This document shows, one piece after another, positions 6,777-64,000 of a stretch of 64,000 bases of DNA. The stretch is from Verrucomicrobiota bacterium (GTDB lineage Bacteria; Verrucomicrobiota; Verrucomicrobiia; Limisphaerales; UBA11358), in assembly GCA_049523455.1 (NCBI GenBank), contig JBEKMW010000013.1, positions 8,513 through 72,512 on the forward strand, in the 5' to 3' direction. Every line of letters starts with the position of its first letter. Position 1 is the first letter of the stretch. A model generated the notes under the pieces. The model ran no database searches, had not been told where the DNA came from, and saw only the letters and a program-made list of their open reading frames with translations. The position numbers were made by a program, and so were the translations under genes.

Positions 6777-9246
6777 ACGCGGCCATCAGTCTGCCTGCGT
6801 CCGGCACACCACAGCCGTTTCTGAACGCGATCGCCAGCATGATATCCAATCGCCGTTGCGCGGAATCATCCGGCAGGAAATGCGCTCGAAACTTCGCAAG
6901 CTGGGCAGCGGGATCGCGCGGAACTTTGCCGACGGTGAAAGACATGAAAAAGCCAACGGCATCCGTCAAGACGGGAGCATCCGGATGGCTTAATTCCCAG
7001 TCGAACAGCCAGGTGCAGGAGCCATCAGTGACCATGTTTGACAGCGCCAAGTCACCGTGAGCCCGGCACACTTCCGCCCCGGAAGCCAGCAAGCGGGTCA
7101 ATTCCTCATGAAAGTCCCGATGCTCCGGGCGAAGACTTTGGATATATTCGGTCCACCATGACAGCCCGGTGATTTCGTCCCTGGTCATTCGTCTGCGGAG
7201 TCCGCAATACTCCGCGGTTAATACGGAAGTGCCCCAATCCTGTTTCAGCAAAGGCGGGCGTGCTTCAGTCGGCAGCGGTTGAACGACCAGATAGCTCGCC
7301 GGGCCGAAGTGATCGTGCCTTATTAACTGCGGCACGCGGAGCTGCCGGAAGGTCAGCTTGCTCAATGCTGCCAGGGCCTCGGCCTGTGCCGCTAAGCGGG
7401 GCCGGTCCTCCGGTCGCAACGCCAGTTTGACAAAGGCAAATGAACGCAAATGCTCGTCGAGCAGGTGAACATAGAAACGACGGCGCCAGGGTTCCGATGG
7501 CCAGCTTACGATAGGATGCGCTATGCGCCGGCCAAGATGTTCTTCGAGTTCCCGTTGCCAGGATTTAAAGTCAAAATTTAAGGCCGGCTCTATTGGTCCG
7601 GCGCGCCGCCTGGCCAGCAGCCGGGACCCGCCCGTTCGGATGGCCGCTGAAAGCAACGTGCGGTAAAGCTGCCGTTTGGGCGTAAACGGTTGGAATTTTT
7701 CCAGACCGGCCCGCAACAATGCCTTCGATTTTTCCGGAACGGCCAGCACATCCCTGCCTTGGTAGCGAAAAACGAGAAAATTGTGGTCATCTTCGCCGGT
7801 ACCTGCTGCGCGGCCATCAACCTGCTTGCCCGAATCATCCGTTGGCTGGCTCCGGAACCCGTGAACGAGAGCGGAGACGGAAAAATTGTCAACCAAACCC
7901 GGATTCGGCGCGGCTGTTCGCAACGCCGTGTCCACTGCCTGCCGCAAGCCGTCCGCAAACCGCGCCGGGCCCCAGTTGGCGATGATCTCACGGCTCTTGG
8001 AGCCAAAAGCTGAAATGCTGAAACGCTGAAACGCTGAAATACGAAGCATCAGCGAGGCAAGCTGTTCGACGTTGAACGGATCAAAGGTGAATCCATTAAC
8101 GCCATCTTTTACCAGGTCCCTGGCGCAACCGCAGCGGTTGGAAACCAGCACGGGCAGGCCGGCGGCCATCGCTTCGTTCACCACCAGGCCCCATTGCTCG
8201 GTCGAGCTGGCATGGACGAAAGCGGAAGCCATACCGTAGTAGGCTGGTAGTTCATCGTATTGCTTGAAGCCGGGCAAGTGCACGAAGTGCTCCAAGCCAA
8301 GCGAAGATCGAAGATCGAAGATGGAAGATTGGAGCGGGCCGTCGCCCAATAGGACCAGGGACCACGGCACCACCAGACCACTGACCACCGGACCACCGAC
8401 CTCTGACCTCTGCCTCTCAGACGGTCCCGTAGTCTCGTAGTCTCGTTGTCCCGTAGTCCTTGAACCGCTTGCCGCCCTCTTCCGATACAGCGCATACGCT
8501 TGGATCAATCGCGTAAGGTTCTTCTTCTCGACGAACCGCGCGCTCGCCAGAAAGTATTTGTCCGGCAACCCATACTGAACGCGGACCTCCGACCTCTGCC
8601 TTTCAGACGGACCCGTAGTCTCGTTGTCTCGTTGTCCCGTAGTCCTTGAACCGCTTTCTACTTTTCCTTCCACGCCCTCTTCCTTCTTCCTTTTCACTTC
8701 ATCCGCTCCGGCGGCGAAATGGGCGTTGTCCACGGCGTCATAGCCCAAAAAAATCCGTTCCTGTGGCAAGCCTAGCTGCTGCAAGTATTCCGCGTGGGGA
8801 GATCCGCCGACCAGACCTGTCGAGCACAAGCGCACCACGCGCCGCTTCAATGCTTCTTTCCACCATTTACGCTCATCATCCCACGCCGTCGTCTCAGACA
8901 TGACCACGACCGGGACATGGCGAGCCATGCACCAACGCATGGCGGCCAGGGAACAGCGGTCGTACCATCCGGGAACGGCTACGACTTGTGGAGCAAGCTG
9001 GTCCAAGGCCTCGCCGACACGCTTGAAGATGCGGTTGGCCGGCAACTCATTGACCGGGGTCCCGGAAAACAGCGTCAACCGGTCGAACCCATCGGAACCT
9101 TCCACCAAGTCCCAGGCATAGGTGAGATCCACGTTCGAGAACTCCACCGCGGTCACGCGCAACCGTGAACCGGCGGCCTTGAGCCGCGCGTAATGATACG
9201 GGCCAATCCGGTAAAACAGCACAGCCACGTGTGGGACATTAACCAT
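6727..9246 (-). CDS. Fusion ORF: N-terminal GT4 glycosyltransferase + C-terminal APH/choline-kinase-like phosphotransferase domain
   Basis: 839 aa. The GT4 core is FVHASSTEQWGLVVNEAMAAGLPVLVSNRCGCARDLVKDGVNGFTF. The C-terminal half has a kinase catalytic-loop pattern, CRAHGDLALSNMV (HxDxxxxN), followed by LFDWELS. Repeat-derived inserts lie at 8302-8469, 8584-8655 and 8005-8042. Confidence 0.7.
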   Translation of the reverse strand: MVNVPHVAVLFYRIGPYHYARLKAAGSRLRVTAVEFSNVDLTYAWDLVEGSDGFDRLTLFSGTPVNELPANRIFKRVGEALDQLAPQVVAVPGWYDRCSLAAMRWCMARHVPVVVMSETTAWDDERKWWKEALKRRVVRLCSTGLVGGSPHAEYLQQLGLPQERIFLGYDAVDNAHFAAGADEVKRKKEEGVEGKVESGSRTTGQRDNETTGPSERQRSEVRVQYGLPDKYFLASARFVEKKNLTRLIQAYALYRKRAASGSRTTGQRDYETTGPSERQRSEVGGPVVSGLVVPWSLVLLGDGPLQSSIFDLRSSLGLEHFVHLPGFKQYDELPAYYGMASAFVHASSTEQWGLVVNEAMAAGLPVLVSNRCGCARDLVKDGVNGFTFDPFNVEQLASLMLRISAFQRFSISAFGSKSREIIANWGPARFADGLRQAVDTALRTAAPNPGLVDNFSVSALVHGFRSQPTDDSGKQVDGRAAGTGEDDHNFLVFRYQGRDVLAVPEKSKALLRAGLEKFQPFTPKRQLYRTLLSAAIRTGGSRLLARRRAGPIEPALNFDFKSWQRELEEHLGRRIAHPIVSWPSEPWRRRFYVHLLDEHLRSFAFVKLALRPEDRPRLAAQAEALAALSKLTFRQLRVPQLIRHDHFGPASYLVVQPLPTEARPPLLKQDWGTSVLTAEYCGLRRRMTRDEITGLSWWTEYIQSLRPEHRDFHEELTRLLASGAEVCRAHGDLALSNMVTDGSCTWLFDWELSHPDAPVLTDAVGFFMSFTVGKVPRDPAAQLAKFRAHFLPDDSAQRRLDIMLAIAFRNGCGVPDAGRLMAAWGGVSVGRCFGGPVDR
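8302..8469. repeat. Mosaic repeat block inside the GT4-kinase ORF, including copy 2 of the 72-nt element
   Basis: (CGAAGAT)x4, then gaccac-type units, then the element at 8398-8469. The element region translates in frame as ...GSRTTGQRDYETTGPSERQRSEV. Confidence 0.9.
8584..8655. repeat. Copy 3 of the 72-nt element inside the GT4-kinase ORF
   Basis: gacctccgacctctgcctttcagacggacccgtagtctcgttgtctcgttgtcccgtagtccttgaaccgct. It translates in frame as GSRTTGQRDNETTGPSERQRSEV. Confidence 0.9.
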
Positions 9247-57789: not shown

Positions 57790-58372
57790 AGGCTGCATTG
57801 GGACCATGAACCTGCCGATGCCCCGCGGGCCTCCGAATACGAATGCTGCCCGCTTGCTGTTCCCTCTCCGCTCCCATTCTGATGGGAGGGGAGACTTTCC
57901 CTCGCCCGCAGGAGCGGGAGAGGGTGGCGCGATAGCGCCGGGTGAGGGTTGTAGGGAAAGCACAAGCCCCTGCGGTCAGGGTGGCGATAGCGCCGGGTGA
58001 GGGTTGTAGGGAAAGCACAAGCCCCTGCGGTCAGGGTGAGGTGAGGGCTCTTTACTTTCATTGGATGTTGGATGCTGGATGTTCGATGTTCCCCGGCTCA
58101 TGGAGAGCCTCCTTTCGCTTTTGCGCATGCACTGGGACCATGAACCGGACGTAAGCTGCCAGTCTGCGGAGCCAGGTTCGCGGGCCACCTGCTGTTCCCT
58201 CTCCGCTCCCATTCTGATGGGAGGGGAGAGGGTTAGGGTGAGGTGAGGGTTCGGTTCATGGAGAGCGAAGTCGGGCGACCCCAGCCTGTAAGCTTTTCAG
58301 TTTTTCAGCGTTTTAGCGTTTCAGAACGTCCCGTAGTCTTGTGGTCTGTGGTCTGTGGTCTGCAGTTCCCGT
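57790..58372. repeat. Composite cluster of REP-type hairpins, a ~55-nt tandem duplication and heptamer/octamer arrays
   Basis: ctgctgttccctctccgctcccattctgatgggaggggaga occurs at about 57857 and 58190. gggaccatgaacc occurs at about 57800 and 58133. The tandem units are at 57924-57980 and 57981-58035. (TTGGATG)n is at 58060-58090. Tttcag and gtggtct units are at 58296-58372. Confidence 0.85.
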
Positions 58373-58532
58373 TTTCGGTAGGGCGCGTCACTCCTCCCGA
58401 TATGGACCCCGATACCGGATGTCGGGGCGGATGTCGGGGTCCGTGCGCGCCGTCGTCTCGTGACTGTTCCCCAGGCTCCCCAAAAGCCCCGATTTCATTG
58501 ACTTCCGCCGTGCGCTAAATACGATTGGGCCC

Positions 58533-59870
58533 ATGAAGCCGGCGAATCACCATTTTGCTGCCGAACGGCGGGAAACGGCCGCGAAACCCAATCAACCGAC
58601 CCTGCAGTTTTCCATCGCAACCTGCTGGGACGATGCGCTGTTGGACGGTTTGGTCGCACTCCAGCGCGAACACCCGCGCGCCCGCTTTGTCGAGGTCTAT
58701 GGCGCGCATCGAACGAACATCACCGGGCATGGACGTCCGGCGTATCGGCTGCCGGAGGTCAGCGCGGAGGTTTTCGAGCGGCACGTGCGGCGCGCGCGGG
58801 AACTGGGCCTGCGCTTCAACTATATCATGAACGCCCCCGACTTCGGCGGACGCGAAACCAGCGTGGAATGGCTGGGCGAAGTCTCCCGCTGGCTGAAATA
58901 CCTCGCGCAGTGCGGCGTCAGCGGCGTCACCATTTCGCACCCGGACCTTTTGCGGTTTGTCAAACGGGAGTTCCCGGATTTCCGGCTCAATGTATCGGTC
59001 ATCACGGGCGTGGACACGGTGGCCGAAGCGCGGCGGTTCGAGGACATCGGGGCGGACGTCATCAACCTTAATCCCTTTACCATCAACCGGGATTTCGATT
59101 CGCTGCGGGCCATCCGCCAGGCCATGGATTGTGAGCTCGAACTCTACGCGAACATTCCCTGTCTCGATCGCTGCCCGCGCCGCGATGCCCACTACCGCTA
59201 CTCCGGCCGCGCCTCCCAAGCTGCGGGCGGACAGGGTGAGGGTATTAACTCGGATGGGAGGGGAGACTTTCCCTCGCCCGCGGGAGCGGGAGAGGGTGGC
59301 GCGATAGCGCCGGGTGAGGGTTGTAGGGAAAGCACAAACTCCTACGGTCAGGGTGAGGTGAGGGTCCGTCGAGAAGGCCTGGCACCCGGCGTCGCCGTGA
59401 CCGAAGACCCGTTCCTGATGCATTGTTCGCACACGTTCTTGTCCAATCCGGTCGAATTCCTCCGCAGTCCGTTCATCCGCCCGGAGGACGTGCCCGCGTA
59501 CCGCCAAATAGGAATGGATTTCATCAAACTTTCCGACCGGACCGAGGGGACCGCCTTTCTTTTGCAAACCGCCAAAGCCTACGCCGCGGGACACTACGAC
59601 GGCAACCTCTTCGACCTGATTTTCCGGAGCGGCCGAAAAATCCGGGCGGGACTGGGCTGGGTCCAGCCCGGAGCGCCGGCGCAGCCCATCCCGGTCATCA
59701 TCCGGAATTCGGTGCTGACGGAATTGAAATTCATCGAACAGATCAAAACGCTCCGCGGCGCCAAGCGGGCGGAATTTTATACGAAGGCGGCGGCGCGCGC
59801 GGTGTCATTGACGAATCCCCAAGCCGTCGAAGAGTGGCTCAGTGTGCTTCAGGCGCGCATCGCCGCGTGA
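58533..59870 (+). CDS. Peptidase U32-family-like protein, interrupted in frame by a REP-type element
   Basis: 445 aa. The TIM-barrel-like N-terminal part (FVEVYGAH...LGLRFNYIMNAP...GVSGVTISHPDLLRFVKREFPDFRLNVSVITGV...GADVINLNP...ELELYANIPCLDRCPRRDAHY) is consistent with U32 architecture. Family assignment is from memory. Confidence 0.55.
   Translation: MKPANHHFAAERRETAAKPNQPTLQFSIATCWDDALLDGLVALQREHPRARFVEVYGAHRTNITGHGRPAYRLPEVSAEVFERHVRRARELGLRFNYIMNAPDFGGRETSVEWLGEVSRWLKYLAQCGVSGVTISHPDLLRFVKREFPDFRLNVSVITGVDTVAEARRFEDIGADVINLNPFTINRDFDSLRAIRQAMDCELELYANIPCLDRCPRRDAHYRYSGRASQAAGGQGEGINSDGRGDFPSPAGAGEGGAIAPGEGCRESTNSYGQGEVRVRREGLAPGVAVTEDPFLMHCSHTFLSNPVEFLRSPFIRPEDVPAYRQIGMDFIKLSDRTEGTAFLLQTAKAYAAGHYDGNLFDLIFRSGRKIRAGLGWVQPGAPAQPIPVIIRNSVLTELKFIEQIKTLRGAKRAEFYTKAAARAVSLTNPQAVEEWLSVLQARIAA
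59231..59365. repeat. REP-type element inside the U32-like ORF (near-identical to 57881-58050)
   Basis: gatgggaggggagactttccctcgcccgcgggagcgggagagggtggcgcgatagcgccgggtgagggttgtagggaaagcacaa... It translates in frame as SDGRGDFPSPAGAGEGGAIAPGEGCRESTNSYGQGEVRV. Confidence 0.9.
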
Positions 59871-59937: not shown

Positions 59938-61002
59938 TTACACCGGCAACTTCTTTTCGCTCCCGCGCATAACCTGTTCGGCCACCTTTTCGGCCATCGC
60001 CTGCGTGCCGAGAATCTTGCAGCCTCGCTCAGCTAGATCGGCCGTGCGCCAGCCGGCGCGCCAGACCGCCGCAAGCGATTGTTCGATCAGTGCCGCGGCT
60101 GCGTCCAGGCCGAAGCTTTCACGCAGCAGCATGGCCAGCGAATAAATTTGGCCGGCGGGATTGGCCGCGTCGGTGCCGGCCAGGTCGCGCGCGCAACCGT
60201 GATTGGTCTGATAGACCCCATGACCCGGCGCGTCGAAGTTGCCGGAAAACGTCACGCCGCGTGAAGAAACCAGAACGCCGGTGACATCCGCCAGCACGTC
60301 GCCGAAAAGATTCGGGGCGGCAATAACGTCGAAGTTCGCCGGGTTTTGAATCAGCTCGTAAGCGGCGAGGTCCACATTCATGAACGTCGGCTCGATCCCC
60401 TGTCGCCGCGCCACCGCGTCCCCCACCTCGCGCCAGAGGGCCGTGATGGTCGGAATGCCGCCATCCTTGACGATGATGTGCAACTTGCCGCGGCGGCCGG
60501 CGGCGGCGCGCGCCGCCACCTCCACCAGCCTGTGCACTTCCGCTTCGCTGTATTGGAATGAATGTTTGGCCACCCGGCCATGGTCCGTGGCGCAATCGCC
60601 CCACTGTCCCTGGTAAACCCCGCCGGTGTTGTCCCGCACGATGAGCAGGTCCACATCTTTCAAAAAATGCGGCGCGATTCTGCCGGCGGACGCCAGTTCG
60701 GGCGCGGGTTGGACGGGAACAAACTTGCAGAACAAATCGAATCGCCGGCGCAAGTCATACACGTAACGGCCGCCGCCCGGTCCGCTCAGAATCGCCCCGC
60801 CCGACTCGAAAACATCCGCGCAAAACGCCACGGTGTCCTCAGGCAGCCATTGCCCGCAGGAGGCCGCGGCTGCTTCGCCAATTAATCCGCCCTGCCGCAC
60901 TTCAAATTTCAGACCCAGGGCCTGCTCGACCGATTTCAAAACTCGCAGGCTGGCCCGGACCACCTCCGGGCCGATGCCGGTCCCTTCCAGGACACCGATC
61001 AT
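59938..61002 (-). CDS. Isocitrate/isopropylmalate dehydrogenase-family protein (LeuB- or tartrate-dehydrogenase-like)
   Basis: From ATG 61002: MIGVLEGTGIGPEVV...LLIVRDNTGGVYQG...NLFGDVLADVTGVLVSSRGV...HGCARDLAGTDAANPAGQIYSLAMLL. The specific substrate cannot be assigned. Confidence 0.75.
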   Translation of the reverse strand: MIGVLEGTGIGPEVVRASLRVLKSVEQALGLKFEVRQGGLIGEAAAASCGQWLPEDTVAFCADVFESGGAILSGPGGGRYVYDLRRRFDLFCKFVPVQPAPELASAGRIAPHFLKDVDLLIVRDNTGGVYQGQWGDCATDHGRVAKHSFQYSEAEVHRLVEVAARAAAGRRGKLHIIVKDGGIPTITALWREVGDAVARRQGIEPTFMNVDLAAYELIQNPANFDVIAAPNLFGDVLADVTGVLVSSRGVTFSGNFDAPGHGVYQTNHGCARDLAGTDAANPAGQIYSLAMLLRESFGLDAAAALIEQSLAAVWRAGWRTADLAERGCKILGTQAMAEKVAEQVMRGSEKKLPV

Positions 61003-61344
61003 CCGGCTCTGGGAGGGATATAGCCGTGGCAAACCCCGGCTATCGGCGGGCAGATAATGAGTTAGTTTGACAGACTTCGCCCGATTGGAGACGGAGCGGC
61101 TTGATTTGGTCCTCATGTTTTTTATGGCATCACCCGCAAACCTTGCAGGCGGATTCTGGCGCAAATCCGCGCCCGAAAGCAAGCACTTGCTCTCTCCTGC
61201 TCACTTCCGAAACCGCCAACATCTTGGCGGCGGGTTTCGTCTGACTGCGCGCAACTGACCAGCTTTCCCGGCGCGCGGCCTTTCAGGCCGCTTCAGCATT
61301 CGAGGGGGATTGGACCATACGATTAATTGCCCTGGGTCCTCGGT

Positions 61345-61992
61345 TCAGACCTGCGTGTAGTCGAACCGGGCCACGTAAATGGCCCGCGCGCTGTTGATGT
61401 AGGCGCTGTAAACCGTCTTCATCGCGTGCTCTTCCTCGTTCGCCGAGAACAGTTGCGCGTCCTGCTCGCCCGTGCGGATGAACTCCCGGTCCTGCGAAGG
61501 CTTGCGGAAAATGCGCCCGCCCTTGATGTTGATCTCCGGGTAGCACTTGTTTACCGCCGGATCGAGGGTCGAATCCGGGATGAACACCCAGCGGATGCCC
61601 TTGTAGTTCACGCTGATCCAGCCCTTCTCAAGGATTTTTTCCTCCGGCTTGGTGGACAGCGGCGCGGCCGGCGAACACTTCACTTCCTTGTTGTACGTGT
61701 TCTGGACCAGAGGCCGCTCGTCGTCCGCCAGTTCCACCACCTGGAAGTACTGGTTGATCCACCCCATCTGCGCATAGAGGTATTTGTGCACACCCGATAC
61801 AAAATCGTAGCCACAACCCGGGTTTTCGGCGCGTGTGCAAATGGGATTTGCACTTTCCTGGGAGGCAAAATCGGACGAAAAAACCGCAGAACCCCCGACG
61901 CGATTTTCTGGACTTGTGATGGCCTTTGCCGCCGGGCTGGACAGCCCCGGCAGCAGTGCGCACAGCAACAGGTTGAACAGTCGTGCGGCCAT
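61345..61992 (-). CDS. Secreted polymorphic-toxin-like protein B (shared N-terminal module, unique C-terminus)
   Basis: 215 aa. The first ~73 aa (signal peptide MAARLFNLLLCALLPGLSSPAAKA, then ...SGVHKYLYA) are near-identical to those of 62654-63526. Similarity stops right after KYLYA. Confidence 0.6.
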   Translation of the reverse strand: MAARLFNLLLCALLPGLSSPAAKAITSPENRVGGSAVFSSDFASQESANPICTRAENPGCGYDFVSGVHKYLYAQMGWINQYFQVVELADDERPLVQNTYNKEVKCSPAAPLSTKPEEKILEKGWISVNYKGIRWVFIPDSTLDPAVNKCYPEINIKGGRIFRKPSQDREFIRTGEQDAQLFSANEEEHAMKTVYSAYINSARAIYVARFDYTQV

Positions 61993-62127
61993 CGGATTGA
62001 CGTGGCCAGTGTAGCCAAAAGGCCGCCGACAGGGAAGCAGCTAAATGAGGAAAAATCAGGCTGGCGCGTCGGTGCCAGGCTGTGTGTCTGCGCCGTTGGC
62101 CGGCGGCAGTTTGGCCGGATGTGTCAG
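61772..62127. repeat. 356-bp direct repeat, copy 1 (recombinase 3' remnant + upstream region + 5' coding module of cassette B)
   Basis: Aligns without indels to 63306-63661 at a constant offset of 1534 nt. Roughly nine of ten positions are identical by eye. Confidence 0.9.
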
Positions 62128-62185
62128 AAGGTGCGTCCCACCTGAAAATGAGTGGTTCCGTGACCTCCGAATGACAGGAATGTGG

Positions 62186-62638
62186 CTACGTTTTTGCCCC
62201 TTCAGATTGGGTTACTGGTTTGGTTCCACGCAGTCTTTGCACCACAAATACGGCGGGCAAAATGCCACAAATGACGACCGGATACCAAAGGCTGATCATG
62301 AACGTCCACCAAGTTTCATTTGTTTCAGTGTGTTCGATTAACCGAAAATAGAGTCCCCAGCCAGTCCAACCCCGTTCAGTTACACTTTTGTCGCCAGTGA
62401 AGCTGACTACACTACCTGTATAGGGCATGGCTCGATTGAAGAAGACTAAAATACCACCCCAGTTACTTGTGACGGCAACATGAAGGTTGCTACCCAGTGA
62501 GGCAGAAGACCAGTGTATGCCCGATTCGTCTGCTCGGGGATTGGAAGTAGCTAGCCATGCGTAGGCAAGGAGACCGGCAAATCCACAAAATAAGACTGTG
62601 GAAGCGTAAGCACAGTTCTTATACAGCCTGTTTTTCAT
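62186..62638 (-). CDS. Small membrane protein, candidate immunity protein for cassette A
   Basis: 150 aa, AT-rich, with hydrophobic segments YASTVLFCGFAGLLAYAWLAT and WWTFMISLWYPVVICGILPAVFVV. It starts 16 nt downstream of the cassette A stop. The role is inferred from position only. Confidence 0.4.
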   Translation of the reverse strand: MKNRLYKNCAYASTVLFCGFAGLLAYAWLATSNPRADESGIHWSSASLGSNLHVAVTSNWGGILVFFNRAMPYTGSVVSFTGDKSVTERGWTGWGLYFRLIEHTETNETWWTFMISLWYPVVICGILPAVFVVQRLRGTKPVTQSEGAKT

Positions 62639-62653
62639 TGGACACCTCGTTCA

Positions 62654-63526
62654 TTAAAACCCAAAGTCGCTCCTTATGGTGGAGCGTGACGATGGTAAAA
62701 CAGTGTAAGGAGCAAAAGCGCTTGCGGTTCCAGAGGTGATCTCTCCATTCGGGTTCCAATTATGATCCCAATGTCCTCCCGCATTCAACCAAATCACCTC
62801 ATGGGCAAAAATATTCGCAAAAGTTTGGGCTGTCGGACTGCTGCTAGTCTCTGAATTAATGGCAGTTGGATTAACACTTGTTTCCCCTCTAGCAGAAGAG
62901 GCAATGCCAAACTTTAATCCCCAAGTAACCCGATCAACATAGGTGTGTTTTGGGCTGCCAATCCATTCCAATGTGCCCGGACCGCTTGATTCATCATGGA
63001 CTTTGATGGTTACACTATGTCCAGCGGGAGGATGGTCAAACACATTGGCTGAAAGCTCTGTTTGGAGGGTGCTCTGGACCGCACTCGGACTGAAACGTGA
63101 TGGCGCACCAGAAGGGTCAACGCTAATATAAACAATTATCGAAGGCGAAAATGCGAGATTCTCAAATCCAGGTTCGGATGTCACGGGCGTGCCAATTGTC
63201 GTTGCAAGCAAACCATAAATAGAAGCGCTATTGATGCCGAAACTGTCACCAATTGAAAAGTCATCATTCCCCGATGGATCAACGTTATCCACCGGATCAT
63301 CCTCCGCATAGAGGTATTTGTGGACCCCCGATGCAAAATCGCAGCCACAACCGGGGTTTTGGGCGCGTGTGCCAATGGGATTTGCACTTTCCTGGGCGGC
63401 AAAATCGGACGAAAAAACCGCAGAACCCCCGACGCGATTTTCCGGGCGTGTGATGGCCTTTGCCGCCGGGCTGGACAGCCCCAGCAGCAGCGCGCACAGC
63501 AACAGGTTGAACAGTCGTGCGGACAT
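62654..63526 (-). CDS. Secreted polymorphic-toxin-like protein A (shared N-terminal module with an Rhs-core-tip-like motif, unique C-terminus)
   Basis: 290 aa. It has signal peptide MSARLFNLLLCALLLGLSSPAAKA. GVHKYLYAEDDPVDNVDPSG resembles the conserved end of RHS-repeat-associated cores (YxYxxxxPVxxxDPxG). The C-terminal ~215 aa are AT-rich and unrelated to cassette B, and contain FAHEVIWLNAGGHWDH. Confidence 0.6.
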   Translation of the reverse strand: MSARLFNLLLCALLLGLSSPAAKAITRPENRVGGSAVFSSDFAAQESANPIGTRAQNPGCGCDFASGVHKYLYAEDDPVDNVDPSGNDDFSIGDSFGINSASIYGLLATTIGTPVTSEPGFENLAFSPSIIVYISVDPSGAPSRFSPSAVQSTLQTELSANVFDHPPAGHSVTIKVHDESSGPGTLEWIGSPKHTYVDRVTWGLKFGIASSARGETSVNPTAINSETSSSPTAQTFANIFAHEVIWLNAGGHWDHNWNPNGEITSGTASAFAPYTVLPSSRSTIRSDFGF

Positions 63527-63661
63527 CGGGTTGACGTGGCCAGTGTAGCCAAAAGGCCGCCGATAGGGAAGCAGCTAAATGAGGAAAAATCAGGCTGGCG
63601 CGTCGGTGCCAGGCTGCGGGCCTGCGCCGTTGGCCAGTGGCAGCTTGGCCGGATGCGTCAG
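63306..63661. repeat. 356-bp direct repeat, copy 2
   Basis: See 61772-62127. It covers the recombinase-fragment 3' end (63590-63661), the intergenic region and the first ~73 codons of cassette A. Confidence 0.9.
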
Positions 63662-63931
63662 CCGGTGGACTTCGATGAGCTTCTGGATGTTGACGCGTGT
63701 GTAAATCTCGGTGGTATTCAACCGGGCGTGGCCGAGCATTTGCTGGACGTAACGCAGATCCGCGCCTTTCTCCAGCATCAAGGTGGCCATCGCGTGCCCA
63801 AACAGGTGGCAGTTCAAAAAGGCGCAGTGGAGTGACGCCGATGAAAAGCTCATCGAGTGAACGCCCACGGGGGAGCCAAGTCTTGTCGGGCTTCGCGGCG
63901 TAGCTCTTTTAAGGGGAAGCGAAACCGACAA
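63590..63931 (-). pseudogene. Tyrosine recombinase (XerC/XerD/integrase family) C-terminal fragment
   Basis: CHLFGHAMATLMLEKGADLRYVQQMLGHARLNTTEIYTRV matches box II (HxLRH...LLGH...Y), but the Arg position reads Gly. The upstream part of the frame is closed by TAG and TGA codons at 63944-63976, and no N-terminal recombinase sequence is recognisable before the window ends. Confidence 0.5.
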
Positions 63932-64000
63932 GTCTTGGCGACGGGGGGAATGCTAAAGTTGCCCGTGCTGGACTCAGCGCCCTCGTGGCGGCAGACTGAC

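Follow-up and report, generated by a model that had tools for sequence, protein, structure and literature searches.

A decayed array of Rhs-tip toxin cassettes in a Verrucomicrobiota genome and a candidate recombinase-bearing carrier of Rhs tips

Introduction

Rhs toxins carry variable tips which, together with their cognate immunity genes, are found strung downstream of Rhs genes, with incoming tips displacing older ones (Jackson et al. 2009, PMC2935791; Poole et al. 2011, PMC3150448; Koskiniemi et al. 2014, PMC3967940). The mechanism published for this displacement is homologous recombination through retained core fragments, with a circular carrier being postulated (PMC2935791, PMC3150448, PMC3967940). 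Here, we analyse a stretch of 64,000 nucleotides (nt) from a Verrucomicrobiota bacterium (contig JBEKMW010000013.1 of assembly GCA_049523455.1, positions 8,513 to 72,512; hereafter the window), near the right end of which lie two toxin-like cassettes, A and B, each preceded by the remnant of a tyrosine recombinase gene and each opening with a signal-peptide leader that meets the toxin part at a 15-nt sequence (the 15-mer). Judged against related loci, the window holds, with a probability of about two in three, the downstream end of a tandem array that arose as members of a family of ~7-kb Verrucomicrobiota elements integrated repeatedly, and that has since decayed.

Two further described systems are of importance for the comparison. 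The C-terminal aspartyl protease of Rhs proteins has two DPxGL-like motifs, the second of which contains the catalytic aspartate (PMC8636562). The rAID-1 clusters, which are confined to Bacteroidales, combine a 5′ recombinase with low-GC arrays of mostly orphan immunity genes; to count as one, a cluster must have a 5′ XerD-like recombinase that shares at least 44% identity with BF9343_RS08045 (Ross et al., bioRxiv 10.1101/471110). A full-text literature search, in which subscription journals were thinly covered and absence is not proof, returned no description of recombinase-mediated exchange of Rhs tips.

A recombinase-bearing element adjoining Rhs genes

In a codon-independent scan covering one genome per species, the leader turned up in four Verrucomicrobiota metagenome-assembled genomes (MAGs), and related loci show the element in its intact form. 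It spans ~7 kb and comprises an XRE regulator, a primase-helicase (a DnaG-type primase fused to a P-loop helicase-like domain), a recombinase, the leader, the 15-mer, a toxin C-terminal domain (CT) and an immunity gene (imm). The element lies directly behind a full-length Rhs gene that has the same 15-mer between its aspartyl-protease motifs, yielding the order Rhs, 15-mer, CT, imm, XRE, primase, recombinase, leader, 15-mer, CT, imm in L006 and L005 (both GTDB MAGs), L074, L089, L116 and L053. In L006, part of a 4.6-Mb contig, the long YD-repeat Rhs gene ends in ...DPLSLHKYLYCQADPVNKIDPTGH plus a C-terminal domain and is followed by genes for a leucine-rich repeat protein, an XRE regulator, a 962-aa DnaG-type primase with a P-loop domain and an intact 307-aa tyrosine recombinase; 68 nt past the latter stands a signal-peptide leader open reading frame (ORF) with GVHKYLYANVNPINGIDPSGH and a C-terminal domain, with two small genes after it. 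The same gene order in L005 continues into the start of a second element copy, and in L074 two backbones that are 99.9% identical over 5798 nt flank a variable cassette of 1267 nt, which begins 17 nt after the 15-mer. The backbone has a conserved left end (GATTCCGAAGTAAACTTCCCC...), which is seen again after cassettes and directly follows the variable immunity genes of the Rhs loci L005, L006, L089, L053 and L057.

A shortened form of this left end was also observed: in L089 (6859-6993) and L126 (2213-2347), a 139-nt remnant separates the Rhs-attached cassette from an orphan that carries a genuine 185-aa Rhs-core fragment. Site-specific events and events of core-fragment homology thus seem to coexist in one locus.

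The intact recombinase combines a Phage_integrase with a SAM-like domain, and its nearest solved relative is XerD (1.8e-48), to which it aligns over nearly its full length, compared with 61 residues for IntI4. tblastn searches with L006 queries placed intact recombinases directly upstream of the leader in L089, L074 (twice), L005, L053, L018 and L116, and 3′ fragments in L125, L041, L009, L057, L134 and the window. In nine loci, the 15-mer lies 256-277 nt past the recombinase stop codon. This spacing is retained in L096, where the recombinase is 62% identical and the leader unrelated, and in L055, where the recombinase is 53% identical and a stop codon ahead of the 15-mer leaves no leader ORF; in L082, a recombinase of 46% identity is followed by yet another signal-peptide-like leader, fused to a Rhs-tip fragment. 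The constant pair is therefore recombinase and 15-mer, whatever the leader, as expected of an integrase and its attachment (att) site.

Conservation of the 15-mer at the DNA level

Every leader cassette uses the identical CACAAATACCTCTAT for HKYLY, as do the full-length Rhs genes of L005 and L006. The Rhs tips in question have the form ...YYLRARYxNPxTGRFWTMDxxxGNxxDPLSL, HKYLY, xxxNPVNxxDPSGH, followed by 170-280 variable residues. Since the 15-mer thus lies between the two DPxGL-like motifs, an exchange at this site would leave the first motif with the shell, and the cassette would bring the second along with its toxin.

A metagenome scan for the 15-mer plus a loose downstream motif retrieved at least 120 stretches; among the matches listed, most are Rhs tips, about twenty are of the leader type and several have unrelated signal-peptide leaders. 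As these loci were selected on the exact 15-mer, its conservation was measured solely on sites that had not been retrieved by a DNA pattern. Among these, 19 of 25 HKYLY sites have the exact 15-mer, compared with 1.2% expected from the codon usage of the same ORFs, and all six codons are used for the conserved Leu and Ser residues that flank it. In leader relatives retrieved by protein search, no fewer than 12 of the 15 bases are kept and TACCTCTAT is unchanged: L134 has the exact sequence, L132 and L133 differ by one synonymous change (the Rhs gene adjoining the L133 leader being exact), and in L135 the first codon has changed from His to Cys, leaving the other 12 bases as they were. Variants next to a recombinase likewise retain TACCTCTAT, even where the preceding amino acids differ. 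On these grounds—exact copies at 19 of 25 sites, free choice of flanking codons and bases kept in relatives found by protein—the 15-mer is constrained as DNA, though not absolutely. Viral contigs scanned with the core pattern gave no match.

At some sites, a stop codon stands one or two codons before the 15-mer (*LHKYLY, V*NIYLY; L026 at 319, L066 at 1444 of the reverse complement, L084 at 180 and L055 at 2085). Cassettes of this kind lack a leader ORF and may be silent.

Breakpoints and two states of one tip

Sequences upstream and downstream of the 15-mer assort independently. Among the matches listed, 112 pairs of sites are at least 80% identical upstream and unrelated downstream, and these diverge 0-3 nt past the 15-mer in 68 cases and within 11 nt in 91, i.e. 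at least 27 nt ahead of the DPSG motif at which protein conservation ends. The two pairs with the reverse relationship (same downstream, different upstream) diverge 0 and 2 nt to the left of the 15-mer.

Occupied and empty states of one flank can be seen in two relatives of the window, L060 and L116. L060 has the order Rhs core, 15-mer, CTx, and L116 the order recombinase, leader, 15-mer, CTx; rightwards from the 15-mer, the two are 100% identical for 1830 nt, up to the end of L116, and leftwards they are unrelated. The identical stretch passes CTx and its immunity gene immx into a downstream Rhs-core fragment that is 96.6% identical to the Rhs gene of L060 itself. On sequence, the pair reads as one chromosomal tip before and after insertion of elements between the tip and its Rhs gene. 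L005 and L089 have one and the same cassette, with the first ~130 nt of the backbone attached (93.5% identity over 1274 nt), on two different Rhs cores, and in L005, L006 and L089 the 15-mer is identical on the Rhs side and the leader side. From these breakpoints, the tip shared by L060 and L116, the fixed distance from recombinase to 15-mer and the conservation of the latter at synonymous sites, it appears quite likely that the recombinase-bearing element exchanges Rhs tips via site-specific recombination at the 15-mer. A further junction was noted in the 460-aa protein P0087, whose leader is joined at the His of HKYLY to an internal Rhs-core fragment ending in its own HKYLY tip; it looks like an off-register or secondary recombination product.

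The foremost alternative is ordinary displacement of Rhs C-termini, in which horizontally acquired tips enter by RecA-dependent homologous recombination in the conserved tip region, older tips move downstream as orphans, and recombinase and primase are passengers of an island that by chance occupies Rhs loci. Strings of dissociated tips behind Rhs genes are its classic pattern, the published model invokes homologous recombination via a circular intermediate, orphans with genuine Rhs-core fragments do occur in these loci (L089 at site 7677, L013, L126), and the repeated module of the window described below, at 356 bp, is long enough for homologous recombination between cassettes. However, as L060 and L116 show, partners with nothing but the 15-17-nt core in common and with unrelated upstream sequences are joined precisely there, a length too short for efficient RecA action, the breakpoints precede the protein-level boundary at DPSG and fall on a stretch conserved as DNA, and the distance from recombinase to 15-mer stays fixed across recombinases of 53-100% identity and unrelated leaders. 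We consider this explanation unlikely.

The array in the window

In the window, the element is reduced to a repeated module and its payloads (Table 1). Two direct repeats of 356 nt (61772-62127 and 63306-63661) lie at a constant offset of 1534 and are 93.5% identical, slightly more than the ~90% given by the initial annotation; outside both edges, identity drops to 20-30% (in 20-nt windows), and a 24-nt module probe matches the two repeats and nothing else in 64 kb (0 expected). As first described, each module consists of a recombinase 3′ end (the last ~24 codons and stop, LTHPAKLP...), a spacer, now measured at ~63 nt, and the start of an ORF, of which 73 codons are included. The latter encode a hydrophobic N-terminus resembling a signal peptide (MSARLFNLLLCALLLGLSSPAAKA) and an AKA motif, and end in GVHKYLYA, the module terminating at the 15-mer CACAAATACCTCTAT. 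Directly past KYLYA the ORFs of A and B are unrelated, again in agreement with the first description. We have little doubt that this module is the right-hand end of a recombinase-bearing element.

Beyond the module, cassette A continues with EDDPVDNVDPSG, and its residues 65-86 match the last 22 positions of TIGR03696 (Rhs_assc_core) at E = 1.2e-3 and 19 bits, below the family cutoff of 32.5; a signal-peptide leader rather than a Rhs core stands upstream of this tip. The payload of A and the adjacent 150-aa gene, rightly called AT-rich, have a GC content of 46-50%, compared with ~60% for the module, cassette B and neighbouring housekeeping genes.

The longer recombinase fragment, that of cassette A, matches XerC/XerD models (Pfam Phage_integrase 1.2e-10, NCBIfam XerC 9.4e-27). 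With the intact L006 recombinase as tblastn query, the stretch 63638-63814 of the fragment aligns to residues 246-304 at 91.5% identity. Its box II reads HLFGH in place of HxLRH—the Gly for Arg already remarked upon—making this remnant a pseudogene. The fragment had been drawn at 63590-63931, which is right for 63638-63814 and wrong for 63817-63946, a conserved non-coding element. Apart from the recombinase fragment, no window protein matched Pfam.

Cassette B has neither an NPVNxxDPSG motif nor a partner gene; a database search with its payload returned only the payload itself, and its single-sequence AlphaFold2 (AF2) model is unusable (predicted local distance difference test, pLDDT, 45). 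As B is the last unit of the array, has host-like GC and lacks both DPSG and partner, it is best read as sequence that was probably downstream of the first integration site; that it is the C-terminus of a resident gene struck at a secondary site was considered as a possibility.

Following up the suggestion to look past position 64,000 revealed further cassettes. L001, a 6.7-kb metagenome contig, encodes cassette A exactly, overlaps the window from 59941 to 64000 and runs 4 kb further. It contains four tandem units of remnant, leader, 15-mer, CT and partner gene, so that the two cassettes described at first are real and part of an array of at least four: cassette 1 (327 aa, with a 151-aa hydrophobic protein), cassette 2 (319 aa, with a 225-aa protein), cassette A with its 150-aa partner and, without a partner, cassette B. 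Spacer, leader and GVHKYLYA are common to all four. The length of recombinase homology varies from ~40 nt (cassette 1) to ~300 (2), ~200 (A) and 72 nt (B), and one remnant is frameshifted; these unequal left edges therefore point to independent truncations of a once-complete gene and to no fixed cassette boundary. An assembly artefact was considered and ruled out: four independent short metagenome contigs from other samples (L128-L131) have the identical A-to-B junction, and L001 spans all four cassettes, so the A-B arrangement is no misassembly.

As the initial annotation had stated, there is no YD-repeat shell gene in the window; none was found in the 64 kb or in the 4 kb upstream on L001, and full-length rhs upstream of the array is a feature of the relatives L005, L006, L089 and L133. 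Intact recombinases are likewise missing from the window and L001, which contain pseudogene remnants only. Beyond recombinase-derived DNA and the ~130-nt non-coding element, the inter-cassette spacers of the window contain no backbone remnants. Rfam gave no match across 61000-64000, and a promoter scan nothing above shuffled expectation. In the window and in L001, L074, L116 and L089, the copies of the 15-mer all run in the same direction, as direct repeats.

The ~130-nt non-coding element occurs once in the window and also at L116 1978-2098 and 4080-4204, L061 3405-3543, L069 265-337, L037 1403-1542 and L067 2525-2588. It follows toxin/immunity cassettes, its 80-90% identity among loci exceeds that of adjacent coding DNA, and it has an internal CAAGACTTG repeat (CGCCAAGACTTGCCGG ... 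CCCGGCAAGACTTGGCTCCCC).

An integron- or rAID-like platform, as the initial annotation had asked about, would have a resident recombinase adding small promoterless cassettes with attC-like sites at an attI-like site. The recombinase is indeed Xer-like, as are IntI and the rAID-1 recombinase, the tandem genes are co-oriented with lower-GC payloads, toxin-antitoxin pairs stand beside the recombinase in L125 and L053, the ~130-nt element recurs after some cassettes and leaderless sites have a stop just before L-HKYLY (L026, L066, L084). Yet whole backbones of 5.8 kb separate the cassettes of intact arrays, remnant lengths differ from cassette to cassette, no attC-like repeat closes A or B in the window, the site lies in frame inside a toxin gene, the payload is toxin plus immunity instead of orphan immunity, and the integron-integrase model TIGR02249 scores the window fragment at 47 bits against a cutoff of 265, in line with the short IntI4 and nearly full-length XerD alignments. 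Such a platform is thus improbable here.

Table 1. Features of the array; positions are those of the whole 64,000-nt window, and every gene of the array lies on the minus strand.
Feature	Position	Strand	Basis or remark
Conserved non-coding DNA, ~130 nt, behind cassette 2	63817..63946	-	80-90% identical stretches elsewhere
Recombinase 3′ remnant of cassette A, residues ~246-307 of a 307-aa Xer-like tyrosine recombinase	63593..63814	-	tblastn, Pfam, NCBIfam
Recombinase stop and ~63-nt spacer with two terminator-like hairpins	63527..63592	-	Conserved in 4/4 L001 cassettes
Leader of cassette A: Sec-type signal peptide MSARLFNLLLCALLLGLSSPAAKA and ~44-aa spacer to DFASGV	63323..63526	-	Sequence, hydropathy
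15-mer CACAAATACCTCTAT (HKYLY), copy A; proposed crossover core (att)	63308..63322	-	
Payload of cassette A: second aspartyl-protease motif AEDDPVDNVDPSG, then putative metzincin-like toxin domain	62654..63307	-	
Putative immunity protein of cassette A, 150 aa, hydrophobic at both ends	62186..62638	-	Conserved neighbourhood
Recombinase 3′ remnant of cassette B: last ~23 codons and stop	62056..62127	-	
Spacer and leader of cassette B	61789..62055	-	
15-mer CACAAATACCTCTAT, copy B	61774..61788	-	
Payload of cassette B, 141 aa after KYLYA, host-like GC	61345..61773	-	

Several smaller observations concern the same region. The terminator-like hairpins are kept in both modules, one pair (63595-63612 and 62061-62078, minus strand) overlapping the recombinase stop codon and a second (63556-63575 and 62022-62041, minus strand) lying in the spacer ahead of the leader start. 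A 30-nt inverted repeat of 77% complementarity (61800-61829 with 62167-62196), which may be due to chance, has one arm in the leader of cassette B just upstream of the 15-mer and the other just past the immunity-gene stop. Toxin-antitoxin pairs are inserted between recombinase and leader in three loci: DUF433 and DUF5615 in L001 (15-257) and L125 (1767-2356), and a ParD/RelE-like pair in L053 (~7800-8400). The stop codon of DUF5615 in L001 directly adjoins the ~40-nt recombinase remnant of cassette 1; for the source genome, L125 suggests a recombinase fragment and a DUF433/DUF5615 pair upstream of cassette 1. Finally, G-rich repeat copies (...GGTCAGGGTGAGGTGAGGG..., families D2 and D4) occur 1.3 kb apart at 58000-59370, in and around overlapping long ORFs at 58515-59870, and are unrelated to the module.

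Payloads, immunity partners and leaders

Among the matches listed, 108 distinct C-termini stand behind the 15-mer. About a fifth match known toxin families (NucA/NucB, Tae4, AHH, LHH, EndoU, Tox-REase-9, Tox-PL-2, NlpC/P60, lipases and PT-HINT) and ~80% have no Pfam family. Homologues of the C-terminal domain of cassette A (CT-A) are found at the C-terminus of Rhs-core proteins (P0009 and P0011; 700-1400 aa) and behind at least four other leader types, which bears out the initial proposal of polymorphic-toxin cassettes on a Rhs-core tip. These homologues have the invariant motif AHExxWxNAGxHxD. The AF2 model of CT-A has a mean pLDDT of 69 (80-93 in its core), and its 49 best PDB matches are all metzincin-type metalloproteases, a weak but consistent signal (E >= 5e-3, template modelling score ~0.45). 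On this model, we read CT-A as a metzincin-like peptidase toxin in which Trp replaces the second zinc-binding His.

In the 150-aa protein, which has no Pfam match, a C-terminal segment is strongly hydrophobic and an N-terminal one less so. The protein stays next to CT-A and co-varies with it in L117 (58% and 60% identity) and L022 (47% and 33%), a retained pairing in keeping with its suspected immunity position. CT-2, the C-terminal domain of cassette 2, and its 225-aa partner also stay neighbours elsewhere, the CT-A and CT-2 pairs being 33-60% identical. As both persist as pairs, they behave as expected of toxins and their immunity proteins; cassette A thus appears, by sequence, to combine a variable C-terminal toxin with a cognate immunity gene.

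The leader is no peculiarity of the two cassettes on which the signal peptide was first noticed. A full phmmer scan (a word-indexed protein search gave five short matches only) revealed a family of ~100 clusters at 50% identity, N-terminal in proteins of 200-450 aa with differing C-termini; the search for further module copies with other payloads accordingly found leader and 15-mer with many C-termini in other loci. When compared with the N-terminal regions of full-length Rhs proteins, whose gene starts are uncertain, the leader showed no similarity. In addition, signal-peptide leaders of at least five unrelated kinds are joined on at HKYLY or immediately ahead of it, some including a piece of the Rhs tip (ARYLNTGTGRF...): they occur in P0008, P0010/P0012 and P0015, in L016, L070 and L096 (~1212), in L020 (1049) and L021 (587), and in L082 after the recombinase. 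Recurrent unrelated leaders suggest repeated selection for an export signal on tip-only toxins, and it is solely from this recurrence in several forms that we infer a function in export.

A model of integration and displacement

How might such an array arise? The circular element would carry, in order, the 15-mer, a new CT, a new immunity gene, the backbone, the recombinase, the leader and, closing the circle, the 15-mer. Its recombinase would cross over within the 15-mer of a Rhs gene by conservative site-specific recombination, fusing the Rhs shell in frame to the incoming toxin domain, while the old toxin domain, its immunity gene and all downstream DNA would end up behind the leader of the element. 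Tandem units would result from repetition because any 15-mer is a possible next target. Later deletions would strip most of the backbone, leaving 40-340 nt of recombinase 3′ end, the spacer and the leader for each displaced pair and thereby the compact units of the window. Directly observed are the anatomy of the element, the conservation of the 15-mer as DNA, the breakpoints, the linkage to the recombinase and the occurrence of one CT block in both states. That the recombinase catalyses the exchange, which way the exchange runs and in what order the events took place are points we infer, the direction mainly from two locus pairs. We lean slightly towards the fullest version of the model, in which self-replicating elements integrate in frame at the 15-nt Rhs site through the Xer-like recombinase and load their own toxin domain into the host shell, the displaced toxin becoming a small signal-peptide-led protein whose immunity gene is still expressed. 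It is speculative that the leader keeps the displaced toxin/immunity operons both expressed and exported.

Very improbably, the element integrates together with its own downstream cassette, the att site being at the outer backbone end and the 15-mer being kept for a protein or translational reason: tandem arrays would look identical under either model and the conserved backbone left end does recur after cassettes, but no conserved attB candidate exists downstream of the variable immunity genes even though the backbone follows them directly, the identity of L060 and L116 passes CTx and immx into chromosomal Rhs-fragment DNA, one cassette with the backbone left end sits on two different Rhs cores, and the constraint at synonymous sites lacks a protein-level explanation.

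Several points weigh against repeated integration at the 15-mer as the origin of the array. No circular junction or excision product was seen, and by eye the 15-mer is not flanked by convincing inverted-repeat arms of the kind typical of tyrosine-recombinase cores. Sharp core-tip junctions are also found in Rhs and CdiA systems without a recombinase. The array of the window has no intact recombinase or full-length Rhs gene within reach, and since cassette B lacks DPSG, the first integration here must have missed the canonical Rhs tip. Pairs with the same downstream and different upstream sequence number only two among the matches listed. The metagenome loci, having been fetched with the exact 15-mer, cannot gauge its conservation; the unbiased set comprises 25 mutually related sites, and synonymous variants at six HKYLY sites of the Rhs or leader type mean that the 15-mer is not universal.

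Implications

Tip acquisition by polymorphic toxins has so far been explained by homologous recombination with hypothetical circular carriers. An integrase-borne carrier of Rhs tips was proposed in 2009; as far as we found, none has been reported, and the loci described here would supply a candidate. Because they provide a possible carrier with its enzyme, a site defined to 15 nt and two contigs resembling the states before and after, the mechanism is directly testable with two plasmids and one recombinase.

If the model is true, mobile elements re-arm the toxin-delivery shell of their host, which would constitute a new relationship between element and host as well as a natural tool for in-frame domain swapping. 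It would also account for the ~100 clusters of signal-peptide-led Rhs-tip toxins, and 15-mer sites would mark a catalogue of uncharacterised toxin/immunity pairs, given the large share of listed C-termini without a Pfam family.

Comparison with described systems

That Rhs tips are displaced into strings downstream of the gene is already well established, and the present loci share this feature. Unlike in the published cases, however, the tip is accompanied by an Xer-like recombinase and a primase-helicase, the junction falls ahead of the cleavage motif in 15 nt that are conserved as DNA, and displaced tips gain a signal-peptide leader in place of a core fragment.

With integrons and rAID-1 clusters, the loci have in common an Xer-family tyrosine recombinase, co-oriented and horizontally acquired conflict genes and lower-GC payloads. 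In those systems, a single 5′ recombinase goes with gene-sized cassettes and with short repeated sites that are intergenic or of the attC kind, whereas here the unit is ~7 kb, the site is in frame in a toxin gene, the payloads are toxin plus immunity and the hosts are Verrucomicrobiota. There is also no IntI-type integrase, and the cassettes are parted by recombinase remnants or, in L074, by full backbones.

Integrases that target tRNA genes and P4-like, primase-bearing islands insert at the 3′ end of their target gene and restore it. The resemblance extends to an integrase beside att, a primase-helicase module, an identical core at both junctions and tandem integration; in contrast to these elements, the target would be re-tipped rather than restored, and the displaced part would gain a new N-terminus.

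Finally, in shufflons (Rci/pilV of plasmid R64) and in invertase-driven tail-fibre switching, segments that are already resident are flipped between inverted sites. As in shufflons, a recombinase would act on short sites within coding sequence and join alternative C-termini in frame to a constant N-terminus. Shufflons import no DNA, whereas the sites described here are direct repeats at which a mobile element would integrate and excise, opening the shell to an open-ended repertoire of toxins.

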